A DNA stretch of 64,000 nt from Bdellovibrionales bacterium (GTDB taxonomy: Bacteria > Bdellovibrionota > Bdellovibrionia > Bdellovibrionales > UBA1609): assembly GCA_965199825.1 (NCBI GenBank), contig OZ241329.1:1216001-1280000 (forward strand). Reading direction: 5' to 3'. Position 1 is the first letter of the stretch, and every line of letters starts with the position of its first letter. Both the position numbers and the translations under genes were made by a program. Under the pieces are notes generated by a model that made no database searches, was not told the origin of the DNA, and saw only the letters and a program-made list of their open reading frames with translations. Positions 1,176 to 51,280 of this stretch are shown piece by piece.

Positions 1176-1895
1176 TTAGAGGATCAGCAAAAGATCATGA
1201 TTTAAACCGTAATTTTCACTCCGCACCCTTTTAATAATTTTAAAGGGCACCTTAAAAATTTTAGAAACTCTGCTATTCAGATTGCTAATTCGAACTTGGA
1301 ATGATGGTAAACTGTTTGTATTTGATCTACGGTTATCACCAAAAATTTTGTATGAAAAATATGTGTTGGGCTGTCTTGACATGATTTCGAGGACATTTGA
1401 TTCCCACGCGCTCAATTCTACTGAATCTTCACCATAACGAATAAATCCCGTATCGACATAAAAATGCAGAGGGCCGATCTGCCTCTTTTGGCCTTGTTCA
1501 TCATCCCAAAAATAACCCACGCCGAATTTAGTTTTAAGCATGTTAAAATGAAGATCGCTTTCACGAAATTTTTTACGGATATGTACGATGACCATTTGAA
1601 CATCGCTGTCGCCTGCGCCCTGCGCGCCCCACACAAGTTTCGCGAGTTCATCTTTTGACACAATCTTAGGAGACGATTTGACCAAAAGATTAAGAACATG
1701 AAATTCAGAAGAAGAAAAAATTATTTCTTTAGCTCCCCACGTCGCCGAGCGAACATCCAGGTTGAGCTCTAATCTTTTTTTTGATTTGGCTTCAAGCTCT
1801 GATTCGCAAATAGGCAATGCAAAAACTGGCAAAGTTAAAATCAACAAAGAAATGTGTTTTAGCCATTTAAGATTTTGAGAATAATGCTGTAGCAT
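1176..1895 (-). CDS. Signal-peptide protein with two OmpR/PhoB-type winged-helix (Trans_reg_C) domains and no receiver domain
   Basis: N-terminal hydrophobic segment ending PVFA. EFHVLNLLVKSSPKIVSKDELAKLVWG...VIVHIRKK...KTKFGVGY is a typical wHTH; a second degenerate copy follows (ELSAWESNVL...QVRISNL...IKRVRSENY). Confidence 0.75.
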   Translation of the reverse strand: MLQHYSQNLKWLKHISLLILTLPVFALPICESELEAKSKKRLELNLDVRSATWGAKEIIFSSSEFHVLNLLVKSSPKIVSKDELAKLVWGAQGAGDSDVQMVIVHIRKKFRESDLHFNMLKTKFGVGYFWDDEQGQKRQIGPLHFYVDTGFIRYGEDSVELSAWESNVLEIMSRQPNTYFSYKIFGDNRRSNTNSLPSFQVRISNLNSRVSKIFKVPFKIIKRVRSENYGLNHDLLLIL

Positions 1896-2075
1896 TTCGA
1901 TTCCTTTTTTCTCTAAGCTAAAGGACGAAAAACAAATTTTATTGTGATTCTAAATTTATGAATAAAGGAAGCGGTAAAATAAGCAAAATACGTGATCCAA
2001 AAATTGATGCGTTGCTAAATAAATTTCTATCTCGATTCGAAAGCTATTTTTCTTAAACCAAAATTAAGCATAAAA

Positions 2076-2801
2076 TTAATAACAGTACGTTTCCGTTTCA
2101 AGATTCAGCATGTAGTAGTGACCGTGTTTACTCTTAATAATTTTTTGTGTAAGATTAAAATGAGTATTAAACTTGGTATTTAATTTACTCACTTTTGATC
2201 GAAATGTAATCAAAGCAGCGCGAGAGGATTCGCTGGTTTGTGTGAAAGAGCGGTATGGATGAAAACTTAAAGGCTGACCTGAGAGAGCACTTAAGAAATC
2301 AGCTTCCCATGGACTCAGCTCCAAGATTTTATCTCGACAACGGACAAATCCTCGTTCTCGATAAAGGGTAAAAGGTCCAAATTCTTGTTCTATTTCTTCA
2401 CCTTTACCTTCACCTTGGGCCCAAGAATAACCTCTGCCATATTTATTCTTGATCAAGTTAAATTGAGGATCGATCTCTAAAAATTTTTTTTTAATTCTAA
2501 CTATTACAGTGCGGATATCATCATTTGTTGCGCCACGGGAACCCCAAACCAGTTTCGCGAGTTCATCTCTAGAAACTATTCTTGGTGCATTTCCTGAAAG
2601 AACTAAAAGTGCCCGTAATTGAATTGGTGAAAATGCAATGACTGAAGAACCCCAAATAATGGATTGAGTATTTGGGTCAATACTTAAGTTTTTATCTAGA
2701 TGAGGAAGCAAAGTCGAATCACAGACTGAAGATGCGTGAACTTGAAAAATCAAAATCATATTTAATAAAAGTAGAGATAATCGCAACTTCACCACCCACA
2801 A
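2076..2801 (-). CDS. Paralog of the previous gene: signal peptide plus tandem OmpR-type wHTH domains
   Basis: ILIFQVHA signal-like segment; IVSRDELAKLVWG...IRTVIVRIKKK...KNKYGRGY; second domain LELSPWEADFL...RSKVSKL. Start codon uncertain. Confidence 0.75.
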   Translation of the reverse strand: MWVVKLRLSLLLLNMILIFQVHASSVCDSTLLPHLDKNLSIDPNTQSIIWGSSVIAFSPIQLRALLVLSGNAPRIVSRDELAKLVWGSRGATNDDIRTVIVRIKKKFLEIDPQFNLIKNKYGRGYSWAQGEGKGEEIEQEFGPFTLYRERGFVRCRDKILELSPWEADFLSALSGQPLSFHPYRSFTQTSESSRAALITFRSKVSKLNTKFNTHFNLTQKIIKSKHGHYYMLNLETETYCY

Positions 2802-3021
2802 ATCAGAATGCTAATAAAACAATATATTCTGGTCTTATTTCCCAATATCAAGGTAGCGATAAATTTGACGCATCGTTTTTGTGAACTCCAAAAAACATTG
2901 AAATCTTACATTTCTGGCTTCGAAGATAGGCTACGTGTCGCGATGTTGCAGACCAAAATTCTTGTATCAATATTTATCGATTTGGACCCACAATCGATGG
3001 AATTAAACTTGAGGGGAAAAT

Positions 3022-3702
3022 ATGAAAATGTTGAATACGTCGATCCGAATGGCCTTGGCCTTTTTTTTGTTTGGTTGCGCCACTCCTAATCAGGATAGAA
3101 AACCGGCATCTGCTACAAGCAACTCGATGGAAATTAGAAAAAGAATTCTTCAATTTGATTCGAAATCTATTTACGGCCGATATAATCTTGTAAATAGATA
3201 CTGTTTAAGTTCGCCGATTTATTCACGATCGATCTATGGGAGCGATGTTAATAATTCGAGCAAAGGTGAATCACAACCTCAAACACCAAATGACACGCTT
3301 AAAGATTTGAATCTAACACTTCTAAAAAATGGAAATTTTAAACTGGTGGGTAAGAATACGCATGACGAGGTTTTTACCAATAAGGGACAGTTTGTTGTGA
3401 GCGAAATAGGCCCCACTGAATTTCTCAAAAAAAATGAGTTTGGTGTCATTGCAGATAACGGGTACCAACATTCGATTGTGTTAAACCTAATTAATGTTGA
3501 ATCGAATATGCCGAGTCCATCAAGAACAACTGAAACTGTGGAAATTGATTTGTTGAAATCCACACCAAACGAACTCGTTGTACACCAAAACGCTCAGGCC
3601 TCGAGCATGGGAAAAGTTGTTTTAAGCGAAGGGATTTCAAGTTGTGATTATGGAAAACTGGGTTGGGATTTAGTTACAGTTTTTAGAAAAGTGGGTCACT
3701 GA
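3022..3702 (+). CDS. Hypothetical lipoprotein
   Basis: Lipobox LFGC after a hydrophobic stretch; GAGGGG RBS-like sequence upstream. Confidence 0.65.
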   Translation: MKMLNTSIRMALAFFLFGCATPNQDRKPASATSNSMEIRKRILQFDSKSIYGRYNLVNRYCLSSPIYSRSIYGSDVNNSSKGESQPQTPNDTLKDLNLTLLKNGNFKLVGKNTHDEVFTNKGQFVVSEIGPTEFLKKNEFGVIADNGYQHSIVLNLINVESNMPSPSRTTETVEIDLLKSTPNELVVHQNAQASSMGKVVLSEGISSCDYGKLGWDLVTVFRKVGH

Positions 3703-3854
3703 ACTTTTAAAACACTGCAGATTGGTAGCAGAGATCTCATTGATGTCGAGCACCGTAAGTGCAAGATAAAAATCCTTACATTCTTGTAAGCGCGCGCGGT
3801 TATGTAACTCAGAAATCCGCAGTCATCGATAGCCGCGCTCGAGTTGGCAAAACT

Positions 3855-4064
3855 TTACTTTTTCAAAAGTTGATCAAGGGTCTCGACACCCTCGTTTTTT
3901 AAAACAGTTTCTAGTAAGTCATCGGATGAATATCCTTTCGCAAAACTTTCGCCGTAAGTTTTGCGAAGTGTTCCCACAAGTGTGTCGTCGCACTTATGCC
4001 GAATTTCTCCGTCGTAATCTCGAGCACGATCGTCGAGTCCTTTTTCGAATTGCCGTGATGTCAT
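3855..4064 (-). CDS. Small conserved-type hypothetical protein (GLD.R.RD.DGEIRHK..DTLVGTLRKTYG)
   Basis: AGAGG RBS upstream; resembles a small bacterial family I recognise but cannot name functionally. Confidence 0.6.
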   Translation of the reverse strand: MTSRQFEKGLDDRARDYDGEIRHKCDDTLVGTLRKTYGESFAKGYSSDDLLETVLKNEGVETLDQLLKK

Positions 4065-4276
4065 AAAACCTCTGTTGCTAGCTTGGATTTAAAAAAAATT
4101 TGCATCCGAAGCAATGAGAACGTTGGCATTTTTTTGTTGAGAAATTGTCTTCATTCAGAAATTTCGAAAGAGGGATAATAATTCCACAGCTTTTGAACTT
4201 GAGATCAAGACAACAACAGTTGATGTTGTGACTGCACAAACATGGCGTTGCGAATTTATTCGAAAGCGGTTGAGCG

Positions 4277-4912
4277 ATGAAATTCTTTTTTCTTTTGTTA
4301 AGTCTACCAAGTTGGGCCGCTGCGGATTGCGGATCAAAAAAAATTCCCTATCCAACTCAGGTCGAAGGGTTTTGTGAGCTATTAATTAGTCAGCCTCAAA
4401 ATAATTCTTTATGCTTGAGTAACAGTTTTACGCTGGACTCCACCAAAAGCCAGACGCAAATCATTTCAATAGGGGCTCATCCAGAAGAACTTCAATTTTT
4501 AATGAGTCTTGTTTATCAAGGGCACAAGCTGTCGGATTCGCATATCCGCTATGGCGATCAGTATGTGTTTGTTTTGACTCCGCTCAATGAAACAAAAGGA
4601 CTCACTGCTCCTGTGCGGGTTGATTTTTTTGTTGCGACAGACGGCAGCGTCGAAGCCTCGACCGTGATCAATGACATGCACTTTTCATCTCAGGAGAGTG
4701 AGCTTGAATTCACCTTGCCTATTCATTTGTTTGCTAATCAAAGTATTAAAAAGAATCGGTTTCGAACAATGATCAACCCGGTTTCAAAAATCTTTCGTCG
4801 CAAACAAAAAATAAAAAGCGAAATACAAAAGACATTTGAGCTTCGTATGAATCTTCAGTTTTTAAAACATCACCGTCATGATCTTGCCGTTCAATTCGAC
4901 ATTGAGCCTTGA
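4277..4912 (+). CDS. Secreted hypothetical protein
   Basis: MKFFFLLLSLPSWA signal peptide; 211-aa ORF. Confidence 0.55.
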   Translation: MKFFFLLLSLPSWAAADCGSKKIPYPTQVEGFCELLISQPQNNSLCLSNSFTLDSTKSQTQIISIGAHPEELQFLMSLVYQGHKLSDSHIRYGDQYVFVLTPLNETKGLTAPVRVDFFVATDGSVEASTVINDMHFSSQESELEFTLPIHLFANQSIKKNRFRTMINPVSKIFRRKQKIKSEIQKTFELRMNLQFLKHHRHDLAVQFDIEP

Positions 4913-5376
4913 GAGCATGATCTTAAGGAACAAGTTGGAGAAAAAATGGAGTGGCCAGCGACAAAATCAATCAGACTCTCTAGATTTTAGCTTTCTAATT
5001 CTCCGGTTAAGTAAAGTATTGGGAGATCTAAGAGTGATCAAAGACAAAGGCTCAGCCAAAAATTTGTGTATTTACAATGGCATTGCAAGTAATCAGTGGG
5101 GCTCGATCACGTGTGTAGCCAAGAAAGTTAAATAGAAATAAGTTTGGTCTCTAAAAAACGCTTCGACTTATTCCGGATGGTCTATGCTCAGGCGTTTTGA
5201 TTTATATTTATTAAAATTGCCAATAGAAGATCGGCGGGTTGTTGAGTAACAACCTCTGCCTCCGAATCGTTTCAAATCAATACAAAAAAGTTATCAATTT
5301 TTCTAATAAGGCCTCGTAAGTCATTGAGAATTATTCAACAAATCCGATCAAGGTAGGGACCACGAACAGGAGCAAT

Positions 5377-6663: not shown

Positions 6664-6674
6664 GATCTGCCGTA

Positions 6675-9016: not shown

Positions 9017-9094
9017 GCCCGCTTGTAGCCCAAGGGGTAGGGGGCTTCAATCAAAAAGGGGTCTAAAAGTTTTGATTACCTGGCCCGAGAACTC

Positions 9095-10027
9095 ATGTTA
9101 TTTTTGTCTATGCTTAAATTATTATTTGTACTTACTTCGTGTTTAGCGGCTCCGCGCTTAACCCCGGGACTTAGCCAAATCTCCAGTGAAGCCCGCTTGG
9201 CTTGGATTAAGGCCAATATTCTTGATCTCAAGGATTTATCGGCAAAAGAAAAATCGAATCTTAAAATTTCAAGTGAGATCGTCGAATTTACGGGTGAGAC
9301 AATCAAAGTAAAAATCGAACCTCGTGGAAATGTAGAAAGTCGTTTCTCTTATTTTCCCGATCAAATCCAATCGGTCAATTCTCCAGGCTTAACCGCTATG
9401 GTTGAGTACGAAATAAAATTGGGCGGTGAAGAAGCGCGCATCTTGATTTCACAATTGCTACAGGCTGAAAAGTCTTATCGGTTACGACCAGCGCTCGGTT
9501 TGATTGTCACTCCCTTGGCCAAGCAGGCCTTGATTGATAGGAGGGTTCTGCCTCTGTATTTCAAAGTCTTATCACGTCTAACAGTTGATGATACGAGTTG
9601 GAGATCCTGGGGCGATGGGGAATCAGTGATGGATAAATTCTTTGAAGAAATCTTCAATGATTTTCATGGCAATGTTCTTGATTTTGGTTTGGTGACTGCA
9701 GCTGCCATGACTCCACACTATTCTATCCGTCAATTAAATCTGACGGATGACTTAGTGCTTTTACGTGCTCACCGTTTTCGACAGATCTTAATGGGGGTGC
9801 AATCCTCAGATCGATTCGAGGTTGCAAAAAAAGGTTTGATTGACTCACAGGCGTTGAATGATTTCTTGAGAGAATTCCCAACCGATAAAAGGGTTGCACA
9901 GAATAAAGTTAAAGCAGTTACTCAAATGTGGCGAATCCGAAGATTCTTGCTGAGCAGTCCATTTGTTCATGATGTTCTTGGGGCGACCGTGTGCGCTAAT
10001 TATTTAGGCTCCGTGCCCAAATACTGA
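9095..10027 (+). CDS. Secreted hypothetical protein with C-terminal VCANYL tag
   Basis: Signal peptide LLFVLTSCLA; no domain recognised. Confidence 0.55.
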   Translation: MLFLSMLKLLFVLTSCLAAPRLTPGLSQISSEARLAWIKANILDLKDLSAKEKSNLKISSEIVEFTGETIKVKIEPRGNVESRFSYFPDQIQSVNSPGLTAMVEYEIKLGGEEARILISQLLQAEKSYRLRPALGLIVTPLAKQALIDRRVLPLYFKVLSRLTVDDTSWRSWGDGESVMDKFFEEIFNDFHGNVLDFGLVTAAAMTPHYSIRQLNLTDDLVLLRAHRFRQILMGVQSSDRFEVAKKGLIDSQALNDFLREFPTDKRVAQNKVKAVTQMWRIRRFLLSSPFVHDVLGATVCANYLGSVPKY

Positions 10028-10040
10028 TAGCGTTATTAAA

Positions 10041-13867: not shown

Positions 13868-14968
13868 ATGGCAAAGTGGCTCTTTGCTTTTGCTCTCTTA
13901 CATTCTGTGAGTCCTGCTTTTGCAGATCGAGATCCAAGGCAAGTGTCTGTATTCGTCAGCGATTTTGATGGAACATTCGCCAGAAATCTTGCCAATGTGA
14001 AAGTAAAACTCGGGCTTTTTCCCGGCATACCTGGTCTTGGTGTTTATTCAGGCTTACCAAAAATTGTTTATGTGCCCGAACATGACTTTGACGGCAACAC
14101 AGGCGCTCGGATTCGCGACCTGCTTGGTCGCTACAATGGATTAAAATTTATTATCAAAGCCTCAGTCGATGAGATCGAACTGCAAAACGGAAGCACAATA
14201 AGGCCCGGTTATTATTACGTTGATCCAAACGATATGTTTGAAGAATTTTTTTCGACCGAAAATGGTGAGGATGGTCATCTTATCAACAATATCCGGATGA
14301 TGATCACAGGGGGTAAACGGTTTTTGTTGGAAGGATCAGCTTTCGTTGGATCAACATTTTCACAGCAACAATCTGAACTTTTAAAGTTGGTGATTCTTAC
14401 GAAGCGCGGCCATTCGTCGCAAGAAATGCGATATGCCCTAAATTTTCTGAGCAAATATTATGGTTGGGGTGAGGTCGACCATTCCGATTCTTCATATGTT
14501 AATCTCAGTCATCCTGACTTTGCCGAATTTTCGATGAACAAGGAAGTTTATCTACAAGCCCTCTACGACGAGCTTTCACAACGCACCATTAGAAACAAAT
14601 CGACTCCGCATTTTTTGGTTTATTTTGAAAATGATCGCAGTGCGATTTTTGAAGCCCAAAAAAAACTTAAAAATTTGGGTCAGCGGGGATTGTATGCCAA
14701 TCCTGTGGTTCCGGTTTTGATCAACTTGGTTGAACCTGAGGTTTTTAATTCGCCTCATGGTTTGGACTGGGACCGCAGCCGACTACAAACATTCGAGCCG
14801 ATGTGGAGGGTCAACATTTATTGGCCTGAGCGAACAGAGACAACAAATAATCTTGCCAGAGTTTTTGAACTCACTCTGAATTTGTCACCAAAAAAAGCAA
14901 AAGCACACTACCGCGAATATGAAAATACCTCTTGGTGCTGCAACATTTTAGCCAAGGCAAAAAAATGA
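13868..14968 (+). CDS. Secreted HAD-superfamily-like phosphatase
   Basis: Signal peptide ending PAFA; motif I VSDFDGT, motif II LTKRGH, motif IV YFEND; C-terminal CCNIL. Confidence 0.55.
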   Translation: MAKWLFAFALLHSVSPAFADRDPRQVSVFVSDFDGTFARNLANVKVKLGLFPGIPGLGVYSGLPKIVYVPEHDFDGNTGARIRDLLGRYNGLKFIIKASVDEIELQNGSTIRPGYYYVDPNDMFEEFFSTENGEDGHLINNIRMMITGGKRFLLEGSAFVGSTFSQQQSELLKLVILTKRGHSSQEMRYALNFLSKYYGWGEVDHSDSSYVNLSHPDFAEFSMNKEVYLQALYDELSQRTIRNKSTPHFLVYFENDRSAIFEAQKKLKNLGQRGLYANPVVPVLINLVEPEVFNSPHGLDWDRSRLQTFEPMWRVNIYWPERTETTNNLARVFELTLNLSPKKAKAHYREYENTSWCCNILAKAKK

Positions 14969-16941
14969 TCTTAAGTCTTTTGTTTCTGATTTTCCAAGCG
15001 CAAGCATTACCCACTGACGTTTGCGAACGGGGTCTTGCTCCTAAGATAAGCTCTAAATTATTATTTAAAGTTTTTAAAAATTTAGTCAGCCAAAGAAGAG
15101 AAATTCCCGAATCTTCCCAAGTGGTACTCACAACTTTTGCTCTCGAATTTGGAATGTCGGTAGAAGATGTCGAAAAAAATATTATAGAGAGCTTTGGCGA
15201 TTTTAATTTATTTATCGAGCTCGCCAAATCGGCAAATGCAAATTTTCCGGGAGCAATAGATAGACGAATCTTTACCGAAGATCGAAGAGAAAAACTTTTG
15301 CGTGCAGTTCGCAATTCCTCTGATCTGATCCTTTTTAAATTGGCTGAAAATCAAGATGTCACAAATTGGGAAGAGATTTTTAATTTGAGCGATACACTCA
15401 AAGCCCCCATCATTGTTGCACCCGCATTTTCAGAAATTGGTTTAATCCCCCAAAGGCTGCAAGCCATATTAAATAATCCCCGTGTTCATTTGCTTGTTGA
15501 TCCCACGTTGCAGATTTCAAAAGATTTTTATGTGGTCAACAATGGATCGCCCGATAAAGTGCAAACCCCTTTGACAGGACTCGATGAGGTTTTTGAGCCA
15601 ACAGATCGGGTGCTTTTGTTTCATCCCCGAATCGACACCCAGACCCGTGCCTCGCTCTACTACGATTCGCGCAGAGGATATTTGGAGACAACAGGATCCA
15701 TGAGCTCACCTGCTTATCACTCCATGTTTAATGTTGGGATGACGACTGATTATCGAGCCCAAAGAACTGCCGAGCAAAATAGAAGTCTCACAATTCTATC
15801 TCGAAGATATCAAAACAAAAAGCTGTCTGAAATTTCGGGTTCGGCCCATGGCATGATGGCGCGACGAGTTCATGTGGTCAAAAGTCACTGGGGAAATCCT
15901 GCTGGATTGTTTGATCTCAACAAAATTTATTTTGATCAAGGAGCGGTTGAAATTAAATATCTTCCAGGTATTGTTCTTGGTGATCTGCACTGGGGTGTAA
16001 CCGACCCCGCAAAATTAACCGCATTTTTTAAATTGCTCATCGAGCTCAAAGTGCTCGCAAAAAATCTTAAACACGGCCAGCCTGGACAGCTTGAATACAT
16101 TGCGGGTCCAATTGTCTTGGGACGGCTCGTGCTTCATGACTTGGTTGATGGAATTCCTTTTAATCATCACCTCAAAGATAAATTAATCAGCCGATCGCTG
16201 TTGGATCAAAAAGGCTATTTGGATATTGAAAATCATTTTATTTCGGCCGCCGCATTTGTGACACAACTCAGTCGTCTTTTGCCTAAAACTCAAATCGTGG
16301 TGCCGGTGGACAATCATGGATATGACTGGATCCAATCCACACTCCAATCTGGCATCTTGGACTGCCAGCCCCGTGATTTACCAATTGTCTTAAAATTAAT
16401 GTTAGATGCATCAAAAGGCACCAATCCCTATGAACAGCTTTTGCGATATTATGGAATCGAATCAAATCCTAAGCGTTTTCTATTTTTTAATAATGATGAT
16501 CAAAACCGTATTGCGATCGACGGCACCGAAAACGATTCGACACTGAACGGTGTCGAAATTAGCAAACACGGCAATCAAGGTATCAATGGGGCTAAATCGA
16601 TTTCGATCAAGTCGATGCTTGCGGCCTATGGTGCCAGTGTGAGCGGACATGTTCATACCACAAGTGAGCGAGGCCGCTCCCGTCAAGTGGGCTCGTTGAC
16701 TCCCAATCGTCAGGATTATCACCGCGGTCCCTCAAAAAATGATACGTCTCTTGCACTGATCTACTCCAAAGAGGCGGTGCAAACTTTGAGATTAGAGCGA
16801 AATTCATTTTTGCCTAACGCCAAAGTTCAAGACCCGGATGATTTTTTTGATGAAGGATTTCCAAAATTAACCAAGTGGCCTGAGGGGAAAACCACAGACC
16901 AGTTCCGAACGCATCCTCCGATTCAAAGATTTCCACGATGA
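14965..16941 (+). CDS. Secreted calcineurin-like metallophosphoesterase resembling phage T5 A1-type proteins
   Basis: Signal peptide MILSLLFLIFQAQA; motifs GDLHWG, HDLVDG..FNHH, DNHG, HGNQGINGA, GHVHT, QVG..Y..GPS; ATGA overlap with the upstream gene. Confidence 0.65.
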   Translation: MILSLLFLIFQAQALPTDVCERGLAPKISSKLLFKVFKNLVSQRREIPESSQVVLTTFALEFGMSVEDVEKNIIESFGDFNLFIELAKSANANFPGAIDRRIFTEDRREKLLRAVRNSSDLILFKLAENQDVTNWEEIFNLSDTLKAPIIVAPAFSEIGLIPQRLQAILNNPRVHLLVDPTLQISKDFYVVNNGSPDKVQTPLTGLDEVFEPTDRVLLFHPRIDTQTRASLYYDSRRGYLETTGSMSSPAYHSMFNVGMTTDYRAQRTAEQNRSLTILSRRYQNKKLSEISGSAHGMMARRVHVVKSHWGNPAGLFDLNKIYFDQGAVEIKYLPGIVLGDLHWGVTDPAKLTAFFKLLIELKVLAKNLKHGQPGQLEYIAGPIVLGRLVLHDLVDGIPFNHHLKDKLISRSLLDQKGYLDIENHFISAAAFVTQLSRLLPKTQIVVPVDNHGYDWIQSTLQSGILDCQPRDLPIVLKLMLDASKGTNPYEQLLRYYGIESNPKRFLFFNNDDQNRIAIDGTENDSTLNGVEISKHGNQGINGAKSISIKSMLAAYGASVSGHVHTTSERGRSRQVGSLTPNRQDYHRGPSKNDTSLALIYSKEAVQTLRLERNSFLPNAKVQDPDDFFDEGFPKLTKWPEGKTTDQFRTHPPIQRFPR

Positions 16942-16977: not shown

Positions 16978-18060
16978 ATGCGCATATTTATAATTCTGGT
17001 TTTATTTAGTTTATCCGGTCGAATCAGCTTTGCCGAAGTGACGGCCCGGATCATTTCCGCCAACTCCGACAACAAAACGATGTTCGATCGAATCGAGTAT
17101 TTTATTGTGGTCCAAGATGGCAAAGCGATTTTAAGCAAAGTGCCTTTGCTCAATCTTAAGGGCCAACAGGTTTTTCGAAGTCTGCTTTACGGTACCGAAA
17201 CTCAAAATAAATTTGTGACCGCAATTTATGGGGATGGGCTGAGCTACGGAAACTATTTTGTATTTCCGGTGCGAATGATTAAGGGCGATGTCCAATCAAG
17301 CACATATTATTTGTTTAGTAAATCTGGCCGGTGGCTTGGCGAAATTGTGAGTCGTTTCGATATTAGTAATGATGCCCTTTTGCTAAAAGAGGCAAGTGCG
17401 ACCGGCTCAAAAAAATTGAGTTTTGTTACCAAAAATTCGGGTGAGTTGCCAATAACTCTGGTGAGCTATACTGGAAATCCTATAAAACTCCAAAAAGACG
17501 AATTGACCCATCCCTTACTTACTCCAGTGAGACTTAAAAATGGTTGGATTATTTTTAAGCTCAAAAAGAAAGTGTTTCTTGCGAATCCTGATGGTTCTGT
17601 GATTCGAAAATTGGTGGCTTCGTCAGACGTCCGAAGTCTTCATGACCTTATTGCTGAGCACGCGGATGGCACACAATCTTTTTTTGTTAAGCTTCATAAG
17701 TCTTCGGAGTTTTATTTTACGACCACAAAGCCTTCGGGCTTTGATATGAATCTAGGCCTGTTCGAAGAAAAATTTGTTGGTTCGAAGATTTTGCTTTTTG
17801 CTCAAACCCAATTTGATTACTTGATTGCCGTCTTACAGGGCCAAGAAAAACAGTCATCGAAAGTTGTCACTTTTGATCATGAAGGAAAAGTGATTGATAC
17901 TAAAGCCATTGAGTTTAATATTTCTCAGGCGAAATTTATTAATAATGTGATTTATGTGAATGAGAGTAATGCTTGCGCCGCTTGGCTCTCAAAATCCAAT
18001 GTGGCGTCTGAAAGATTTTTGCTCGATTCACTTGGCAATATTCACAAAATTTATAATTAG
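16978..18060 (+). CDS. Secreted beta-rich hypothetical protein
   Basis: Signal peptide ending ISFA; repeated short beta-strand-like segments; CAAWL near the C-terminus. Confidence 0.55.
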   Translation: MRIFIILVLFSLSGRISFAEVTARIISANSDNKTMFDRIEYFIVVQDGKAILSKVPLLNLKGQQVFRSLLYGTETQNKFVTAIYGDGLSYGNYFVFPVRMIKGDVQSSTYYLFSKSGRWLGEIVSRFDISNDALLLKEASATGSKKLSFVTKNSGELPITLVSYTGNPIKLQKDELTHPLLTPVRLKNGWIIFKLKKKVFLANPDGSVIRKLVASSDVRSLHDLIAEHADGTQSFFVKLHKSSEFYFTTTKPSGFDMNLGLFEEKFVGSKILLFAQTQFDYLIAVLQGQEKQSSKVVTFDHEGKVIDTKAIEFNISQAKFINNVIYVNESNACAAWLSKSNVASERFLLDSLGNIHKIYN

Positions 18061-18925: not shown

Positions 18926-20281
18926 TTAACGGTCTCTTTCTAAAGCTTTATAACTTTCGGTGTCCTGCACCGGCATATGAGTAAGAGACGATTCAAAATG
19001 CGCGAAGCCCGTAATCAATTTTTTAGATGGCACTGTCATCTTTAAATCTGCAACTTGATCTAGAGCTAAGACAAGACGCTTAAAAAGCTCGGCGTGAGCG
19101 GTTGTCATCCTCAAGAAGGTAAATTCCTGATCCGCAAAGGTGGAGGTCACAAAATCTTTTTCGCCATCTTTCAAACCTTTAATAATGTTGCGGCCGTTCG
19201 GATCGAATGACTGAGGAACATCGAGGATTAAATTGAATGTTTCGACATAGTAAAGTTGAAGCATTCTAAAAATTAATTCGAGGACCTCGGCAGGTTTCTT
19301 ATTTGTAAAAGCAAAAACGTAGTCGGTTTCAGAAAATTGCAACAACTGAATCGGGCCTTGGTTTTGAAATTCAAAAACCTTGGGTCTATGGTTACTGGCA
19401 AAAAATGGTGGTCGTAGCGCATAAAACCAATAGGGAACCGTGACGTTTGGCGAATTTCGAAAAACCACTCTGTACCTATGTGCAACGTCTCGACGTATTT
19501 TATTTTGTTGGTCTGTTAAGGATTTGTACCAATGCGTGACCTCGGCCGATCGGGTGTCAACATCGCGAGCGAGATAGCGCACAATACCTGGCCAGCTTTC
19601 CATCATATCTGCAACTCTGCGAATGCGTGGAAAATCCCATTCCCATTTATCAAAGGCCCACTCTGTTCCTGGAAAAGGAATAAACGCATGCATCGCACGG
19701 AGCCTAATTTGGGTTGTAGTGGCTAGTGCGAAAACATATCCGATTTCGGCATGATCTTTCTGACTCGGATCGATTTCATAGAAGCCGGACTCGAAATAGG
19801 GCTGCAGCGTAAAATAATCTTTCAACAAAATACTTTTAACATCGACCAAACCCGAGACCGCTGCCGTCGCCTCGACACAACAGTATTGATGAATGGTAGG
19901 ACCAGACTCATAAAGCTCAAAAATTTTCGACGCAAAAGAAACTCCACGAGCCACATCAATCCAAACATTTTTTTTGTTGGCCATCTGAAGAGATTCAATT
20001 TTGAGTTGCTCGGCGTCGTCGCTACCGACTCGAAGCTTTTCAACATCAGTCACACGCGGCCAATCACCAGCTTGCGCGGGGTCGACTGAAAATAAAATTT
20101 GTTTATCTAGGTAGTTTATAAACGCGGCGTCTGGATTGGGTAATAAAGTGACGGGGCGGGTGGCCTTGTAAAGCAGCGGGGCGCATACGTCAATTGTGTT
20201 GCTCATCACCATTGCTTGGAAGTTTGTATCAAAATAAGGTTGAGCAAATGCGCTACTAAGGAAAAATAAAAGCTGAAGCAT
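18926..20281 (-). CDS. Secreted hypothetical protein with N-proximal VCAPLL tag
   Basis: Signal peptide MLQLLFFLSSAFA; 451-aa ORF; no domain recognised. Confidence 0.55.
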   Translation of the reverse strand: MLQLLFFLSSAFAQPYFDTNFQAMVMSNTIDVCAPLLYKATRPVTLLPNPDAAFINYLDKQILFSVDPAQAGDWPRVTDVEKLRVGSDDAEQLKIESLQMANKKNVWIDVARGVSFASKIFELYESGPTIHQYCCVEATAAVSGLVDVKSILLKDYFTLQPYFESGFYEIDPSQKDHAEIGYVFALATTTQIRLRAMHAFIPFPGTEWAFDKWEWDFPRIRRVADMMESWPGIVRYLARDVDTRSAEVTHWYKSLTDQQNKIRRDVAHRYRVVFRNSPNVTVPYWFYALRPPFFASNHRPKVFEFQNQGPIQLLQFSETDYVFAFTNKKPAEVLELIFRMLQLYYVETFNLILDVPQSFDPNGRNIIKGLKDGEKDFVTSTFADQEFTFLRMTTAHAELFKRLVLALDQVADLKMTVPSKKLITGFAHFESSLTHMPVQDTESYKALERDR

Positions 20282-33223: not shown

Positions 33224-34807
33224 ATGAAAGCATTCCGTTTCGGCGGGGCTTTAATAGCTTCGGTAGTATTTGTAGCATGTTCGAGCGGCGGGAGCGGCGG
33301 ATCTAAGCCACCACCCATTCGCGACGGCGCATTTCAATGTCCAGTTGGCGAAGACTGTACTCGACGCCCACAGCGACCACTGGCTCAGCCAACTGCACCC
33401 GTTCGTCAAGAGACGGTGCAACCCGCTCAGGTCACACAGATCACAACAGGATCTCCAGAAACCACAGCGGTAACCACCTCCACATTAAGTGAGAGCGGAA
33501 TCAGCGGCACACCCAATGGTGGCTATCATTCTGAGCCCATCGTTAACATTCCTCAGGTTGATCAATCTCGCGGTTTGCAAGCCCAAGTGCCACTCCCACG
33601 AAACGAAACTGGGGCGGCGACTGAAGGTCGAGTGTTTACCGACACCATCGATGATCCGGCTCTTTATTTTTTACGTGTGATGGCAAATAATGTTCCTAAA
33701 GACATTCTTGAAGCGAGCCATAAATTTGCCGAAGGTATTGAAGCGGTAGAAGTTTCGCTTGATGCAAACGGAAGCGACACTGCGATTATCTCATTTCGAG
33801 ACGGAGATCGTGACGTCGTTGTGCGATTGGTTGGACCAACGCATCCAGAAAAACGCAACAACGTGACCTTTTTGGTGGCTGAGCTTTCGCAGCAAGAACA
33901 GGCCGCATCGACCGGAGCACCTTATGACGGAAAAATTTCGGCAACCGCAACTTGTATTGATGCAGGCAATAGCTGTCAGCACCAAATTTTGACCATTCGT
34001 GAATTGAAGCGAGGTCCAAAAGGCTTAGAGCCATGTAAGATTGCTTATGTGATTGCACGATCTTTTGATGCGCATATTCGCTTAGCAGCCATCGATACGG
34101 TTCGACCAGAAAGTCAGCCCAATGCCAATTACGCCAAGGTCATGACTTATTTGAATAACACTGTGAAATGTTCGAACGCTCGCCGAGGCGAAGGCCCATG
34201 GACATTATGTAAACCACCCGCATCCTCAACCATTGGTTTGGCTTCATGGAGCGTTGCATTTGGTGCATCCGCATTTGATCTGACTCTTGAAGAAGACGCG
34301 GGCACAAATCAACCCATCGTTGATGTCACTCGTCTTTCGGGATTGTTAACATCTCCTGGAGGCAACGTTGAATCGGGTCCAAGTACTCGTCGATTGAGAG
34401 TTGAAGGTGGCCAGAAAAATATTAATTACGGCAACGATCGCACTCTTTATCAACTTAAAGAACGCACCGGAAAATATGTTTCGGCAATTCAGTTTGCACA
34501 GTTGACCAAAAATAATGGACGCGGTCGGCTGAGCATCAATCTCAACTTTGGTTACAATGCCTCAGCTGAATTTGATGTGTTTCCTCTCGCATTCCCAACA
34601 ATGACAATGGAGCAACTCAAAAACTTGGTGCAGCCCGATCAAGCGCAGGCCCCAGCCGCAGCGCCTGCTCCAGCTCACCAGTCTGCAAATCAGTGTGAGA
34701 GATTTTTTAGCGATCCAAAAAAATATGTTCGGGCTCAGGGCAATTGTTGCGATGATCTTGAGCATCTTTCTAAAGCACGGGTGAACATCTGCACCCAAGG
34801 TTCATGA
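33224..34807 (+). CDS. Large hypothetical lipoprotein
   Basis: Lipobox FVAC-SSGGSGG, Pro/Thr-rich linker, Cys-rich C-terminal tail; GAGGGG RBS. Confidence 0.7.
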   Translation: MKAFRFGGALIASVVFVACSSGGSGGSKPPPIRDGAFQCPVGEDCTRRPQRPLAQPTAPVRQETVQPAQVTQITTGSPETTAVTTSTLSESGISGTPNGGYHSEPIVNIPQVDQSRGLQAQVPLPRNETGAATEGRVFTDTIDDPALYFLRVMANNVPKDILEASHKFAEGIEAVEVSLDANGSDTAIISFRDGDRDVVVRLVGPTHPEKRNNVTFLVAELSQQEQAASTGAPYDGKISATATCIDAGNSCQHQILTIRELKRGPKGLEPCKIAYVIARSFDAHIRLAAIDTVRPESQPNANYAKVMTYLNNTVKCSNARRGEGPWTLCKPPASSTIGLASWSVAFGASAFDLTLEEDAGTNQPIVDVTRLSGLLTSPGGNVESGPSTRRLRVEGGQKNINYGNDRTLYQLKERTGKYVSAIQFAQLTKNNGRGRLSINLNFGYNASAEFDVFPLAFPTMTMEQLKNLVQPDQAQAPAAAPAPAHQSANQCERFFSDPKKYVRAQGNCCDDLEHLSKARVNICTQGS

Positions 34808-40172: not shown

Positions 40173-40202
40173 CAAATTCATAAAAACTATGGCCCAATTA
40201 TA

Positions 40203-40850: not shown

Positions 40851-40856
40851 TTAGAT

Positions 40857-44457: not shown

Positions 44458-44483
44458 TGGTTTTTTTGAACTCTCGGGGCAGC

Positions 44484-44813: not shown

Positions 44814-44849
44814 AACTCACTCCATTGCTGGTGTTTTGAAAGTTGCAAG

Positions 44850-45473: not shown

Positions 45474-45518
45474 GTCTTATTTATCGTTTTAACAGCCGAC
45501 CTACAAGAAAGGCTTCCC

Positions 45519-46229: not shown

Positions 46230-47253
46230 AGTTGAATACCTCAATACTTTGCCCTCGGCAGATCATATTGCCAAAAGTTTAGGATTTAACCCCGAGACCG
46301 TGCTTTTGATTTACGATCGGCGACTTAAAAAAAAATTGTCCAAGTGGCTTAAACTTTTTCCCTATCGGTATGCGGTCAAAGCGGGCGAAGACTTAAAGTC
46401 GCTCAACGATTTTCCAAAACATGTTAAAAAAATAATCGATCTTTTAAAAAATTCAGCACCAAGAAAAAAAACATGTTTTGTAGGAATTGGTGGAGGATCA
46501 GTCGGAGACTTCACAGGCTTTTTGGCAAGTGTTTATAAGCGTGGAGTTTTTTTGATTCATATCCCTTCGACTTATCTTGCCGCCATCGATTCGGCTCATG
46601 GTGGTAAGACCGCCCTCAATATTAAAAGGTATAAAAATCAGATCGGCACTTTTTATTCGGCTCACACTGTATTTATTGTTCAATCGCTGCTCGAAGGGTT
46701 ACCAAAAAAACAGACGCGATCGGCAATGGGCGAGCTATGTAAAATGGCACTCATTGATGGAGACAAATTTTTTTCGCAACTCTCGAGCGAGAAAAATCAA
46801 GATCGCATTTGGGATTATTTGCCCTTGGCGATTGAGGCCAAAAATAAGATTGTCGAACAGGATCCTTTTGAAGCTAAAGGAATCAGAGAAATTTTAAACC
46901 TTGGCCACACCTTGGGCCACTGTTTAGAAATGCAATTGCAGCTTTCGCATGGTGAAGCTGTTGGATATGGAACTCGATTTGCTTTAGAGTGGAGTCACCA
47001 CTGCGGCTATTTGGATTTAGAAGATCTTGCATTGTCTTTGGAGCTTTTAAAAAAACATTTAAATCTGCCGCAAAAACAAAATATATTTACTAAAAGTAAT
47101 TTAAGAAAATTGGTTGTTCAAGATAAAAAGCTGATCGACAAAGATCATATTCAATTTGTATTTCTCGAAAAAATCGGCAAGCCCTTTGTAAAAGCGGTCA
47201 GTCTGGATTCTTTTTTGACCGAATGCGAACGACAAAATTGGATCAAGGGATGA
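46216..47253 (+). CDS. aroB: 3-dehydroquinate synthase
   Basis: GGGSVGDFTGF, DSAHGGKT, LNLGHTLGH, HGEAV. Confidence 0.92.
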   Translation: MHQSRVEYLNTLPSADHIAKSLGFNPETVLLIYDRRLKKKLSKWLKLFPYRYAVKAGEDLKSLNDFPKHVKKIIDLLKNSAPRKKTCFVGIGGGSVGDFTGFLASVYKRGVFLIHIPSTYLAAIDSAHGGKTALNIKRYKNQIGTFYSAHTVFIVQSLLEGLPKKQTRSAMGELCKMALIDGDKFFSQLSSEKNQDRIWDYLPLAIEAKNKIVEQDPFEAKGIREILNLGHTLGHCLEMQLQLSHGEAVGYGTRFALEWSHHCGYLDLEDLALSLELLKKHLNLPQKQNIFTKSNLRKLVVQDKKLIDKDHIQFVFLEKIGKPFVKAVSLDSFLTECERQNWIKG

Positions 47254-48416
47254 GAGAGTTTTTCTTTGTTGGCCGTGTGCCTTGCTCAAAGTCGCTACTC
47301 AATCGAGCTCTAATTTTACAAAGTTATGAGCCCAAGCTTGTGATCAAGGGCGACTCTGAGGCCGAAGATGTTATCAAGATGAAGGAGGGTCTAAAGGCTC
47401 TGCTTTCAGATCAGCCGGTGGACTGCGGGAGTGCAGGCACGGTTTTGAGATTTTTGGCATTAAGAGCCGCAAGGGTTAAAGGTCAACATCTGCTCAAAGG
47501 AACACCCAGATTATTTTCGCGTCCAATGGATGAACTGGTCGGGTTACTTTCGCAATTGGGGTCTGAGGTCAACATTTTTGAAGACCACATGATCATCAAG
47601 TCCCAAGGCTTTTTTGTGATGGGCGATATGATCAATGTGCGAAGCGAGAGATCCAGCCAGTTTTTGTCGAGCCTGTTACTCAACTGCTGGGATTTGGATT
47701 TTGATATGTTTGTCAACATGGGCTCGCAAATCGCATCAAAGGCTTATTTTGAAATGACTTATCAGATGTGCGAAAAGGCGGGACTAAAACCTTTTCGAAA
47801 ACAAAATGAATTGATGCTGGCAAAAAATCAAAAAATAATTCCACAAGAGTTGGTGATTGAATCGGATTTGAGTTCGGCTTTTGCTTTGTGCGCGTGTGCG
47901 GCGGTGGGTGGCAGTGCCACTCTTATTGATTTTCCAAGCTTAAGTCTTCAGCCGGATCGCCTTTTTGTGATGGTTTTAAAAATGATGGGTGTGGGTGTTG
48001 AGTCCCACGGCAATCAGCTTAAAATTACCAAAGCCGACACGCTTGTTGGAGTCGATGTGAATCTTTACGATGCGCCGGATCTCTTTCCGGTTTTGGCATC
48101 GCTTTGTGCTTTAGCCGAAGGGTCGTCGCGTCTTTTTGGAGCGCCTCAACTCAATTTTAAAGAATCCAACCGGATTCAAAAAACCGCAGAGCTGCTTCGA
48201 CCTTTAAGACCTTCGCTTGAGGTTCAGCACGACGGTATTTATTTTCCACAAGAAAAACTTCAAAAATTAACTCAACAAATTGAGTTTAACCCGGATCAAG
48301 ATCACCGCATGGCCATGGCCGCGGGTGTATTAATCCAAGCCGGCTATCCGGTCCATATCACCGAGCCTTCGGTGGTTATAAAAAGCTTTCCACAATTTTG
48401 GTCGTTTTTAACATGA
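47250..48416 (+). CDS. aroA: EPSP synthase
   Basis: SKSLLNRAL, CGSAGTVLRF, SSQFLS, KESNRI, DHRMAM, KSFPQFW. Confidence 0.93.
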   Translation: MREFFFVGRVPCSKSLLNRALILQSYEPKLVIKGDSEAEDVIKMKEGLKALLSDQPVDCGSAGTVLRFLALRAARVKGQHLLKGTPRLFSRPMDELVGLLSQLGSEVNIFEDHMIIKSQGFFVMGDMINVRSERSSQFLSSLLLNCWDLDFDMFVNMGSQIASKAYFEMTYQMCEKAGLKPFRKQNELMLAKNQKIIPQELVIESDLSSAFALCACAAVGGSATLIDFPSLSLQPDRLFVMVLKMMGVGVESHGNQLKITKADTLVGVDVNLYDAPDLFPVLASLCALAEGSSRLFGAPQLNFKESNRIQKTAELLRPLRPSLEVQHDGIYFPQEKLQKLTQQIEFNPDQDHRMAMAAGVLIQAGYPVHITEPSVVIKSFPQFWSFLT

Positions 48417-50065
48417 TCACGGTTTTGATCGGCCATCGAGGTGTTGGCAAAACCAGTTTTTTAAAACGAATTCAAAATGCGTTCGATCAACAGGTTGAGA
48501 CCGTCGACCTCGACTTGCTGATCAAAGAGCACTTTGATGAGATTGGTGAGACTGAGTATCGCAAAAAAGAACACGCCGCATTTTTAGAAGCGATAAAAAA
48601 TAGAAATAAAAAAACATTTATCGCCTTAGGTGCCGGATTCAATTTTGAAATTTCATCTGGGATCGAAATTATTTGGATCCGGCGCGAAACCGATCGATGG
48701 GGCAGGATTTTTTTGGACCGCCCCCGACTTGAACCCCAGCTTTCGCCTCTTGAGGAGTATGCGGTGCGCTTTCGTCAAAGAGATGATCGCTTTCGCAGGC
48801 TCGCCCATCGCCAGTATATTTTGCGTGAAGGATCTTTTGATGAGCTCAAAGCCGACAGAGCTTTTTTTAAAATTGACCAAGAGCCGATGAATGGATCGCT
48901 CACGGTACTGCCCTGGATGCTTCAAACTTTGGAGAATGAAAAAACCGCGCGGTATCTTGAGCTTAGGGATGATCTGCTTGATAAAAGTCAAATTTCTCAA
49001 GCTTTAACTTTAGATAAATTATTTTTGATGACTCATAAAAAGTCCCCAGATTTTGAAGAGTCTAAAGCCGTTCATGATTGGCCACTCGAAAAATTTAAAA
49101 ATTCAAGCGGTGTGGTGTCGCTTCATCAGCGAAGCCATGACCTCAATAAAGATTTTAAACGTCTCGAAAATTTTGAGCGGGTGAAGTTTGCACCGATGAT
49201 CGAATCCTTTGAAGAGCTTGAGCTCTGCCATCAGTGGTGGAAGCAAAAACCGGATCAACGCAGTTTTTTACCCTGCTCGGAGGATGGACGCTGGAGTTGG
49301 TACCGGGCGCTCTTTGGGCCAAAAATGGAGATTGGGTTTTTTCGTTACGATGAGGGAGCCAGTCCCGATCAACCGACCTTTGCCGAATGGTTCTATAGCA
49401 GAAATTTCGAAAATCATTTTGCCGCAGTCTTAGGCGATCCTATTGAGCATTCATGGAGCCCCTCTTATCATACCAATTTTTTTGCTGGGTTTAAAATGCC
49501 CATGGTTAAAATTAAAATCTCCAAAGCCTCTGACCTTAAAATTTTAAAGTCGATGGGACTTGTGGCGGCTGCAATCACCTCACCATTCAAAAAACTTTTT
49601 AGAGCTGAAGCCGCAAACACTGTGTGCTGGGATTTTGTCGAACACAAATGGCAGTGGACCAATACAGACAAAGAGGGACTCAAAGTCGCTCTCGAAACAT
49701 TTCAGGAAATCAAAAATTGGGCGGTTTGGGGCGGCGGCGGATTGATCGAAACATTTAAAGACCAATTGCCCGAGGCCCAATACTATGGGGCCCGCAATGG
49801 ACAATTAAAAAGCGGAAAACAAAAAGAGTTTGATGGATTGATTTGGGCCTGCGGTCGAGGCACTCCATTTCAATTTCCGGTTAAAAGACCTCAGCTGATC
49901 TTGGATTTGAACTACACCGAAAACTCACCCGGTTTAGAGTTTGCATTAAGAACGGGTGCAAAATATTTTTCTGGTGCCACTTTTTTTAAAGCTCAGGCGC
50001 AAGCTCAGCAAAAATTCTTTGAAGCCTATTTACAAAAACGACCAAGGATGATCACTACTCTTTAA
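48413..50065 (+). CDS. Trifunctional shikimate kinase / type I dehydroquinase / shikimate dehydrogenase fusion (AroK-AroD-AroE)
   Basis: P-loop GHRGVGKTS plus ALGAG; ELRDD, VVSLH, VKFA (DHQase I); GDPIEHSWSP, TSPFK, AANT, NTD (AroE). Confidence 0.8.
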   Translation: MITVLIGHRGVGKTSFLKRIQNAFDQQVETVDLDLLIKEHFDEIGETEYRKKEHAAFLEAIKNRNKKTFIALGAGFNFEISSGIEIIWIRRETDRWGRIFLDRPRLEPQLSPLEEYAVRFRQRDDRFRRLAHRQYILREGSFDELKADRAFFKIDQEPMNGSLTVLPWMLQTLENEKTARYLELRDDLLDKSQISQALTLDKLFLMTHKKSPDFEESKAVHDWPLEKFKNSSGVVSLHQRSHDLNKDFKRLENFERVKFAPMIESFEELELCHQWWKQKPDQRSFLPCSEDGRWSWYRALFGPKMEIGFFRYDEGASPDQPTFAEWFYSRNFENHFAAVLGDPIEHSWSPSYHTNFFAGFKMPMVKIKISKASDLKILKSMGLVAAAITSPFKKLFRAEAANTVCWDFVEHKWQWTNTDKEGLKVALETFQEIKNWAVWGGGGLIETFKDQLPEAQYYGARNGQLKSGKQKEFDGLIWACGRGTPFQFPVKRPQLILDLNYTENSPGLEFALRTGAKYFSGATFFKAQAQAQQKFFEAYLQKRPRMITTL

Positions 50066-51280
50066 ATGTTTTTATTTCTAATTTTTCTGATCCCTGCCTT
50101 TGCCAGGCTTGATGCGCCTTTGCCCCAACAATATATTTCTGGCAAAGAGCTGTGCGAGCGATCACAAACTCAAAATGAGGATCGCGGTTTTTTTGTTGAT
50201 GTCCCGATTGATTATCAAGACCTGTCAAAGGGACTCACTCCCATCTACGGATTTTTTCCTTTTGCCCCCTTTGATCCCCAAAAGCCTTCACTGATTTATT
50301 TTTCGGGTGGACCTGGATATTCAGGGCATCATCTTTCGCTCGAGGATCATCCCGGAAGTTTATTTAGTGAATATAATGTTTTGCTTTTTGATCAACGTGG
50401 AACAGGGTGTTCTCGGCCTGCGACCTCTGAACTTTATAAATCTTTTGATTTTTATAGTTCTGTTGCCACAGCCCGCGATGCTGAAGCTCTACGGCAGCAC
50501 TTAAATATTTCAAAGTGGTCGGTGGTGGGACGCTCCTATGGAGCGGTGCCCGCATTTATATCGGCGTCGTTGTTTCAAACAAAAAGTGTTTCGCTCACCC
50601 TTTTTGCCGCATTAATGGATAAAAACAAACAGCATCAAACGATTGAAAAATATGATGAGTGGCTCCTACAGCATTCAGAGGTTCAAAAGGCTTTCAATGC
50701 CGCCACCTATTTACCTGGATATGATGAAATCCAAATTGAAGAATTTAAAGAAAATATTTTCCAGCGATTTTATGACCATATCAAAACACATGGAACGATT
50801 GGGCTCGAAGTCTTTTCACAAAAGATGATTGAGCAAATTCAATATGCAATTGCACCACAAATTTTAAGATCGCAAATCACCCATATCGAAGATTTATTTT
50901 CCAAGTCTGATCCAAATGTCTTTTATATTTTAAAATCAAAAGAAAATTTGTTGGGCGATATGCAACCGTTCGGTATGAAGCAATCTCTTTACGAACACTA
51001 TCCGGTTGAAATTCCGACTACCTTTTTTCAAGGTCTTCATGACCCGAGAACTCCGGCGTCTCGTGTTTTAAGATATTTAAAAAATCATCGTCAGGTCCAA
51101 GTTTATTTGTTCGATGAGGCCGGGCATATGGTGGTGAACCCTCAAGTCGAAGGTCAATCAAATTTATTTACAGCACCTTCGTGGGTTTTGGAACAAGCCC
51201 TTCGTGGTGAAATCAGCAAATACCCCTGCCAAAAGTTTTTAGAAAAAGGCACCAAGCGCTTACTTTTGTCGCGACCATAG
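50066..51280 (+). CDS. Secreted alpha/beta hydrolase (prolyl aminopeptidase-like)
   Basis: Signal peptide; GGPG, DQRGTG, GRSYG nucleophile elbow, QGLHDPRTP, AGH; C-terminal CQKFL. Confidence 0.85.
   Translation: MFLFLIFLIPAFARLDAPLPQQYISGKELCERSQTQNEDRGFFVDVPIDYQDLSKGLTPIYGFFPFAPFDPQKPSLIYFSGGPGYSGHHLSLEDHPGSLFSEYNVLLFDQRGTGCSRPATSELYKSFDFYSSVATARDAEALRQHLNISKWSVVGRSYGAVPAFISASLFQTKSVSLTLFAALMDKNKQHQTIEKYDEWLLQHSEVQKAFNAATYLPGYDEIQIEEFKENIFQRFYDHIKTHGTIGLEVFSQKMIEQIQYAIAPQILRSQITHIEDLFSKSDPNVFYILKSKENLLGDMQPFGMKQSLYEHYPVEIPTTFFQGLHDPRTPASRVLRYLKNHRQVQVYLFDEAGHMVVNPQVEGQSNLFTAPSWVLEQALRGEISKYPCQKFLEKGTKRLLLSRP

Follow-up and report, generated by a model that had tools for sequence, protein, structure and literature searches.

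A terminal C-x3-L cysteine tag on unrelated exported proteins of a Bdellovibrionales bacterium

We analyzed a stretch of 64,000 nucleotides (the window) from a Bdellovibrionales bacterium (assembly GCA_965199825.1, contig OZ241329.1, positions 1,216,001 to 1,280,000 of the forward strand), in which an earlier note had pointed out eight exported proteins, here called A to H, that share a Cys-x3-Leu (C-x3-L) motif close to one end. All eight motifs are present as quoted and their coordinates were verified, and a signal-like segment of the Sec type was recognized by a heuristic at the N-terminus of every one of the eight proteins. In A, B, E, and G the cysteine follows soon after a predicted AXA cleavage site, and in C, D, F, and H it lies near the C-terminus. 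The motif is very probably a real and functional terminal thiol tag.

In protein A (239 aa; 1176..1895, minus strand), a signal peptide precedes CESEL, which lies at mature position 4 (nucleotides 1794-1808), and protein B (241 aa; 2076..2801, minus strand) has CDSTL, also at mature position 4 (nucleotides 2709-2723). The two are paralogs with 38% identity, and both match the Trans_reg_C winged helix (PF00486; 56.4 bits for A and 37.9 bits for B, cut-off 26.2). Both are OmpR-type winged helix-turn-helix (wHTH) proteins; no match to a receiver domain was obtained in A or B, and the N-terminus of each is taken up by the signal peptide and the tag. A signal peptide where the receiver domain would sit, as in this pair (1176-2801, minus strand), is odd for DNA-binding proteins. 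The tag cysteine of A is its only cysteine, and a search of 5.8 billion proteins returned zero homologs of A. Protein E (658 aa; 14965..16941, plus strand; length counted from the ATG at 14965, with the open reading frame opening at 14932) has a signal peptide and CERGL at mature position 6 (nucleotides 15022-15036). Protein G (451 aa; 18926..20281, minus strand), an orphan, combines a short uncharged signal peptide, which passes our predictor at a relaxed threshold only, with CAPLL at mature position 20 (nucleotides 20171-20185).

The remaining four proteins carry the motif at the other end. Protein C (310 aa; 9095..10027, plus strand) has CANYL 11 residues from its end (nucleotides 9992-10006) and is a lipoprotein by its N-terminal signal (LTS followed by C), so that its tag lies at the opposite end. 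Protein D (366 aa; 13868..14968, plus strand), whose gene overlaps that of E, has a signal peptide, CCNIL 10 residues from the end (nucleotides 14936-14950), and a DxDGT motif that is putatively HAD-like. Its language-model look-alikes are viral hypothetical proteins and DUF2608 (0.88), which serve as a lead only. Protein F (360 aa; 16978..18060, plus strand) has a signal peptide, a sub-threshold match to DUF5711 only, and CAAWL 28 residues from the end (nucleotides 17974-17988), whose cysteine is the sole one in the protein. Protein H (404 aa; 50066..51280, plus strand), an alpha/beta hydrolase by Pfam, has a signal peptide and CQKFL 17 residues from the end (nucleotides 51227-51241). With their tags 28 residues from the C-terminus and 20 residues past the cleavage site, F and G are borderline members at the edge of the usual range and form a weak point of the set. 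C, D, E, and G match no Pfam family (for protein E, no match at an E-value <= 0.01), and D and G have no homologs across 60 family genomes.

Within the window, 14 signal-peptide proteins were called, nine of which have a terminal C-x3-L and none of which (0/14) has an interior one. The ninth carrier (33224-34807, plus strand) is a lipoprotein with 12 cysteines and C-x3-L 20 residues from its end, which is probably a chance match in a cysteine-rich protein. The genes around the carriers are housekeeping genes, as the earlier note had said for several of them: dnaX-ybaB-recR, glutamine synthetase III, ValRS, RNase R, aroB, and aroA. Directly after H, an exported subtilase (Peptidase_S8) is encoded at 51348-52835 (plus strand); it has a cysteine at mature position 6, and its +4 residue is not leucine.

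The whole genome (2.84 Mb, labelled G000) was annotated with our own dicodon gene caller, which gave 2561 genes (91% coding), and our own strict heuristic signal-peptide predictor called 548 proteins, 122 of them of the lipoprotein type. Of the 548, 58 have C-x3-L among the first 25 mature residues and 46 have it among their final 30, compared with 13.0 +/- 3.5 and 13.0 +/- 3.7, respectively, in shuffled mature sequences (300 shuffles, maximum 24); in proteins without a signal peptide (n = 1884), the rates are 3.9% (N-terminal) and 4.6% (C-terminal). The check proposed in the earlier note, terminal enrichment against shuffled and signal-less controls, was therefore positive on these heuristic calls. 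Leucine occupies position +4 after 47/125 cysteines in the first 15 mature residues and 31/92 in the last 15, but after only 41/718 interior cysteines (Fisher 6e-20 for the N-terminal and 2e-13 for the C-terminal comparison). As a guard against cherry-picking, all 2388 spaced residue pairs at exported termini were scored against interior rates; C-x3-L ranked first (78 vs 4.1 expected, p 1.6e-69) and C-x2-L second (46 vs 4.4 expected). The enrichment was stable at signal-peptide thresholds of 4.4, 4.0, and 3.6. Two peaks also stand out in the frequency of cysteine itself, one at mature positions 3-5 (3.6-4.3%) and one at a distance of 5-9 residues from the C-terminus (~3%), compared with 0.71% in interiors, and neither was seen in proteins without a signal peptide. 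A terminal C-x3-L motif far beyond chance is confirmed, and it marks 97 of the 548 signal-peptide proteins, about one sixth of the predicted secretome.

The general form of the tag is C-x-x-x-[L/F/I], which in this genome is mostly C-x-x-(L)-L. In N-type tags (n = 53), the cysteine is mostly found at mature positions 2-10 with leucines at +3 and +4, and D, Q, E, and N are the residues enriched before it. After the cysteine, S is enriched 1.9-fold and E 1.8-fold (S, E, and Q being typical of the N-type), and proline is enriched at +7 to +9. The consensus [VI]-C-[AED] put forward previously therefore survives only in its second half, and there mildly through E; [VI] before the cysteine is not enriched genome-wide. 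In most N-type cases the cysteine lies 2-7 residues past the hydrophobic core of the signal peptide, with spacers of up to 10-23 polar residues in others. C-type tags (n = 46) have the same core followed by 4-27 residues (median 9). These tails are mildly basic (K/R 2-2.7-fold at +5/+6, mean net charge +0.76) with no defined cluster, and a membrane helix was found in 0/46 of them (12-residue window, mean hydropathy >= 1.6). In an AlphaFold model of E (mean pLDDT 89.6, pTM 0.88, 45-sequence alignment), the sole segment with pLDDT <50 is residues 13-24, the tag stretch, and the first helix starts at residue 30. We class the tag as a short linear motif; it rides on a flexible end and lies outside any domain.

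BLAST groups the 97 tagged proteins into 86 families, in agreement with the claim that their cores are unrelated, which shows that the tag is portable. Its codons are diverse (TGC 51, TGT 48, and all six leucine codons in use), indicating selection at the protein level; a DNA-level repeat as the cause was ruled out on the same counts. The tag cysteine is the sole one in 42 of the 97 carriers, and the pairing with internal cysteines that the earlier note had named as a possible refutation is thus not available to them. Among single-cysteine proteins with a signal peptidase I (SPase-I) site (n = 89), the cysteine is in the first 25 residues in 35 (9.5 expected) and in the last 30 in 29 (11.4 expected), so that 64/89 have their sole cysteine at an end. 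Other exported proteins prefer even cysteine counts (84 with two vs 34 with three; 36 with four vs 13 with five), which indicates that disulfides form in this periplasm. Taken together with the sole-cysteine carriers, this preference marks the tag thiol as an extra, unpaired one.

Most tagged proteins are orphans. Among 30 single-cysteine tagged proteins scanned, 29 had no Pfam family; a further tagged protein is a MaoC dehydratase/thioesterase. Tagged genes occur all around the chromosome; their coding scores are lower, and so is their GC content (41.6% vs 43.5-43.9%). Directly adjacent tagged pairs number 13 vs 7.0 expected (P 0.02), and D-E is one of them. They also include a three-gene operon of giant exported proteins (G000:C1:1097685-1108547, minus strand; mature lengths 1017, 1765, and 782 aa; gaps of 6 and 9 nt) with N-, C-, and N-type tags; two of these proteins have cytoplasmic-looking paralogs at 800899-804079. 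A further peculiarity of the genome is the use of very short SPase-I signal peptides without Lys/Arg (e.g. MFLFLIFLIPAFA), which make up 26% here, 38% among tagged proteins, and 5-10% in the relatives G033, G045, G038, G021, and G008.

The tag is retained where the rest of the sequence has diverged. In all ten tagged paralog pairs (10/10, 23-38% identity), both members have the same type of tag at about the same place, and several paralogs missed by the strict filter are tagged all the same (CEEFL, CEQIL, CERLL, CTVYL, CSALL). In an array of six tandem paralogs (G000:C1:460767-465603, 25-34% identity), the cysteine lies 2-3 residues after the AXA site with leucine at +3/+4, and the residue preceding it varies (D, G, N, H, E). 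For the 1313588 family, own-genome paralogs only were found. The family of protein E reaches further, with 415 members in a representative library of 1.84 billion proteins. Of the 149 members listed, 64 reach 450 aa or more and have a predicted signal peptide, and 61 of these 64 have an early cysteine (first 30 mature residues; 2.6% expected), which is the sole cysteine in 31 of the 61. At +4, these 61 have L (28 members), F (11), or I (6), and the wider set L/F/I/V/M accounts for 50 of them (background 28%). In longer members, the tag is still at the very N-terminus despite ~190 extra residues before the conserved domain. E-like genes occur in 14/120 other genomes of the phylum, belonging to seven other families, and complete open reading frames have a signal peptide and then an early cysteine. 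A second conserved end feature of this family was noticed at the C-terminus, where nearly all members (P0012-P0068; L232-L245) end in [VIT]DQ[YWF] and then a short basic tail.

The D-E gene pair is found in G000, G124, and G104, each time with a C-terminal cysteine on D and an N-terminal one on E. The D homolog of G124 (37% identity) retains its C-terminal cysteine in HACTNWM; the D-like gene of G104 (a weak match, E-value 7e-5) ends in a lone-cysteine KSCRAII, and its E partner starts with NCRNRF. Of the five H homologs found, three have a C-terminal C-x3-[L/I], at non-aligning places. By its ValRS the present genome belongs to Bdellovibrionota, the best named match being a MAG of that phylum at 65%. 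Relatives were sampled at ~400 kb each with the same pipeline, under which two samples of the present genome gave 9+6 and 9+8 tagged proteins. G038 shows a moderate signal (5+3 tagged vs 1.1 expected). In G003, the cysteine is near an end in 8/8 single-cysteine exported proteins, in a looser C-x-x-hydrophobic-hydrophobic form. No tag was seen in the sample of G014 (21 SPase-I proteins). Separately, hydrophobic N-termini repeatedly end in strings such as FQNC, YNNC, FNNC, and FENC (G000:C1:856416-857738; L044, L045, and L058 in G033; L118, L127, and L123 in G003), which resemble a non-canonical lipobox, typical of the lineage, in which Asn precedes the cysteine.

Calcineurin-like metallophosphoesterases are marked by the metal-binding motifs DxH, GD, GNH, H, and GHxH. 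In protein E, H342, D392, N450, H451, H535, H562, and H564 are invariant across 45 sequences, and D340 is nearly so. Foldseek with the E model gave no match at an E-value <= 1e-3, and the top weak matches (Mre11, PolD DP1, Vps29, LpxH, and PP5) are all of the calcineurin fold. The nearest language-model clusters are of the phage T5 A1 family (score 0.91, a lead only). Judged by these residues, E is a predicted calcineurin-fold metallophosphoesterase. The earlier note had listed cytoplasm-type domains among the carriers; the wHTH of A and B and the metallophosphoesterase of E, with its weak Mre11-like fold matches, bear this out, and the DxDGT motif of D is putatively HAD-like. The T5 A1-family neighbors of E suggest that D and E (13868-16941, plus strand; L233, L244), a pair that two further families of the phylum also have, may form an exported module for DNA degradation. 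A complex prediction for mature D with mature E scored 0.00 with no alignments and an uncertain partner fold, and speaks neither for nor against binding.

Overall, the analysis shows a conserved, end-located tag on unrelated cores that often supplies the sole cysteine of its carrier. We tentatively favor the reading that it serves as an intermolecular disulfide tether or assembly tag, to which we give somewhat less than an even chance. The carriers are predicted Sec exports, and the cysteine sits in a flexible stretch 2-20 residues past the signal peptidase I site or ~5-25 residues before the C-terminus. A lone cysteine in the oxidizing periplasm would be oxidized by the disulfide machinery, and the simplest product would be a mixed disulfide with another protein, with one or two neighboring leucines supplying recognition. 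The partner might be a shared envelope carrier or anchor; in a few operons it might be the tag on the product of the adjacent gene. Such a covalent but reversible link could tether, retain, or assemble the cargo until thiol exchange or reduction frees it.

Several observations weigh against this disulfide tether. No partner or enzyme was found. The five genomes checked, tagged and untagged alike, each have 2-4 DsbA-like Thioredoxin_4 genes, so these counts give no signal for a dedicated DsbA-like oxidoreductase. Two cysteines are present in 25 of the 97 tagged proteins, where an internal disulfide is possible. A tagged neighbor is absent for most tagged genes, which means that locking of neighbor to neighbor is not a general rule. 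Additionally, the tag is patchy among relatives: it is weak in G045 and was not seen in the ~400-kb samples of G033 (the closest by ValRS, 72%), G021, and G008. Finally, all gene and signal-peptide calls are heuristic and come from neither SignalP nor Prodigal.

The interpretation given in the earlier note is partly supported: its portable, end-located character holds, as do selection at the protein level and retention in distant homologs. Its further step, in which the tag would drive a second export step that carries periplasmic cargo across the predator outer membrane into prey, is putative and, on sequence evidence, doubtful. The cargo does look effector-like (the near-absence of Pfam families among single-cysteine carriers, the lack of homologs of A, D, and G, the lower GC), and parts of it suit cytoplasmic substrates, namely the two wHTH proteins, the metallophosphoesterase, and the MaoC dehydratase/thioesterase. 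Indirect outside support comes from papers on Bdellovibrio bacteriovorus HD100, which report that its enzymes Bd3285, DslA, and Bd3279, with a lipobox and hence an N-terminal cysteine, are secreted into prey (PMC10127604). However, no secretion machinery was tied to the tag, and enzymes of the prey cytoplasm may need no special route after the prey membrane is breached. We also know of no translocation signal that depends on a cysteine and works at either end of a protein, which we count against this address. A thiol-lipidated surface anchor processed by a CPBP/Rce1-like protease, by analogy with the CaaX box and with myxosortase and MYXO-CTERM, is suggested by a gene that adjoins A and B: the CPBP/Rce1-like intramembrane protease gene at 24..875 (plus strand), which matches PF02517 at 71.7 bits (cut-off 22.4) and whose best NCBIfam match is the myxosortase core, although its scores fall below the cut-offs of NF040914 (49.1 bits, cut-off 100) and MrtP (41.4 bits, cut-off 250). 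CPBP genes are present in G000, G038, G003, and G045 and were not found in the tag-poor G033, G021, and G008; they occur in 10/10 further genomes with a tagged E-family gene and in 14/14 E-positive vs 75/106 E-negative genomes of the phylum sample. This distribution has to be read against a high base rate (89/120 genomes, 74%) and is confounded by one family (f22, 14/14). G014 has an ortholog and showed no tag in its small sample, and orthologs of the window gene, found in 7/60 family genomes, lie at seven loci without conserved synteny to tagged genes. CPBP genes vary in number, with four in G039 and none in G001. Cysteine-bearing C-terminal sorting signals are proposed CPBP substrates in the work of Haft, but no membrane helix is present in the 46 C-terminal tails, and an N-terminal tag could not be trimmed in the manner of CaaX. 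We therefore regard lipidation with CPBP processing as quite unlikely and the CPBP protease as a weak lead to a tag-processing enzyme.

The N-terminal cases might instead be lipoproteins with a relaxed lipobox, handled by Lgt and LspA, with the C-terminal cases unrelated to them. The short distance between hydrophobic core and cysteine in most N-type tags would fit, and this lineage seems to have unusual strings that resemble a lipobox, FQNC, YNNC, and FNNC among them. However, lipobox-like residues at -3 to -1 are found in 0/53 N-type tags, the residue before the cysteine is D, E, N, H, or G within one paralog family, polar spacers extend to 10-23 residues, and the C-termini share the preference for leucine at +4 (31/92). 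Taken together, these features make the relaxed lipobox very unlikely. It is harder still to credit that the tag has no function and reflects chance or composition, a DNA repeat, or an ordinary structural disulfide. C-x3-L is a low-information motif that was picked by eye, and F and G are marginal. Nevertheless, it tops the unbiased scan of residue pairs with no such preference at interior cysteines, its codons are diverse, a second cysteine is missing in 42/97 carriers, and an early cysteine recurs in 61/64 listed distant homologs of E.

Returning to the disulfide tether, its broadest form would be an undescribed, phylum-wide thiol sorting or tethering system for prey-directed cargo, with more than 100 proteins in this genome, held covalently in the envelope until handover; we consider this unlikely. 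Bdellovibrio-like predators have to distribute hundreds of secreted proteins over their own envelope and the periplasm and cytoplasm of the prey, a task for which papers on HD100 call for a novel targeting mechanism (PMC10127604). If the broad form is true, the tag would be the missing address label for protein delivery from predator to prey, with a cargo that includes exported DNA-binding and DNA-cutting proteins. If it is a covalent docking device, it would be a compact new means of attaching proteins to bacterial surfaces. The tag is easily recognized by sequence, at least one enzyme family has kept it throughout the phylum, and it gives a list of candidate cargo, mostly orphan proteins, and one residue to mutate.

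Three known signals were compared with the tag and rejected, since the lipobox, the MYXO-CTERM-type signal, and the CaaX box each fail a defining feature. The NCBIfam sorting-signal models gave no match to the eight window proteins at an E-value <= 1. Our literature search, which covered papers outside the supplements of the HD100 studies, where relevant N-terminal sequences may be listed, found no description of such a tag. The remark in the earlier note that it knew of no named system agrees with both results.

In eukaryotes, the cysteine of the CaaX box is the fourth-last residue of a cytosolic protein, with two aliphatic residues after it, and its protease Rce1 belongs to the CPBP family. 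The tag resembles it in having a cysteine followed by aliphatic residues near the protein end, and in the CPBP gene beside A and B. Unlike CaaX, it has 4-27 residues after the cysteine (three in 0/46), its hydrophobic residues are at +3/+4 and not +1/+2, it belongs to the periplasmic compartment, and it also comes in N-terminal copies. The immunoglobulin secretory tailpiece is a short terminal extension with one unpaired cysteine, through which covalent assembly and retention are mediated by thiols in an oxidizing compartment. This is an analogy only, for the tailpiece is eukaryotic, is confined to one protein family, and has no sequence relation to the tag.

Closer to hand, the lipobox shares with the tag a cysteine shortly after an N-terminal export signal, an occurrence in the same phylum, and a link in the literature to prey-bound proteins. 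According to the HD100 papers, the three lipobox enzymes named above reach prey (PMC10127604, PMC11003981), and a novel targeting route into prey is suggested there (PMC10127604). Unlike in the lipobox, the hydrophobic residues of the tag come after the cysteine and not before it, an AXA-type site and a polar spacer precede it, even the permissive pattern [LVI][ASTVI][GAS] at -3 to -1 is found in 0/53 N-type tags, and 46 tags are C-terminal. The MYXO-CTERM-type signals, as described in the work of Haft, are C-terminal only and consist of a motif, a membrane helix, and an Arg cluster. In contrast, the tails described here lack a helix (0/46), have a median of 9 residues after the cysteine, and account for only half of the tags, the other half being N-terminal. 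What the two have in common is a CPBP-family protease gene, present here in the genome and in the window, and the principle that a single proteome bears one short, portable tag with an invariant cysteine on many signal-peptide proteins that are otherwise unrelated.

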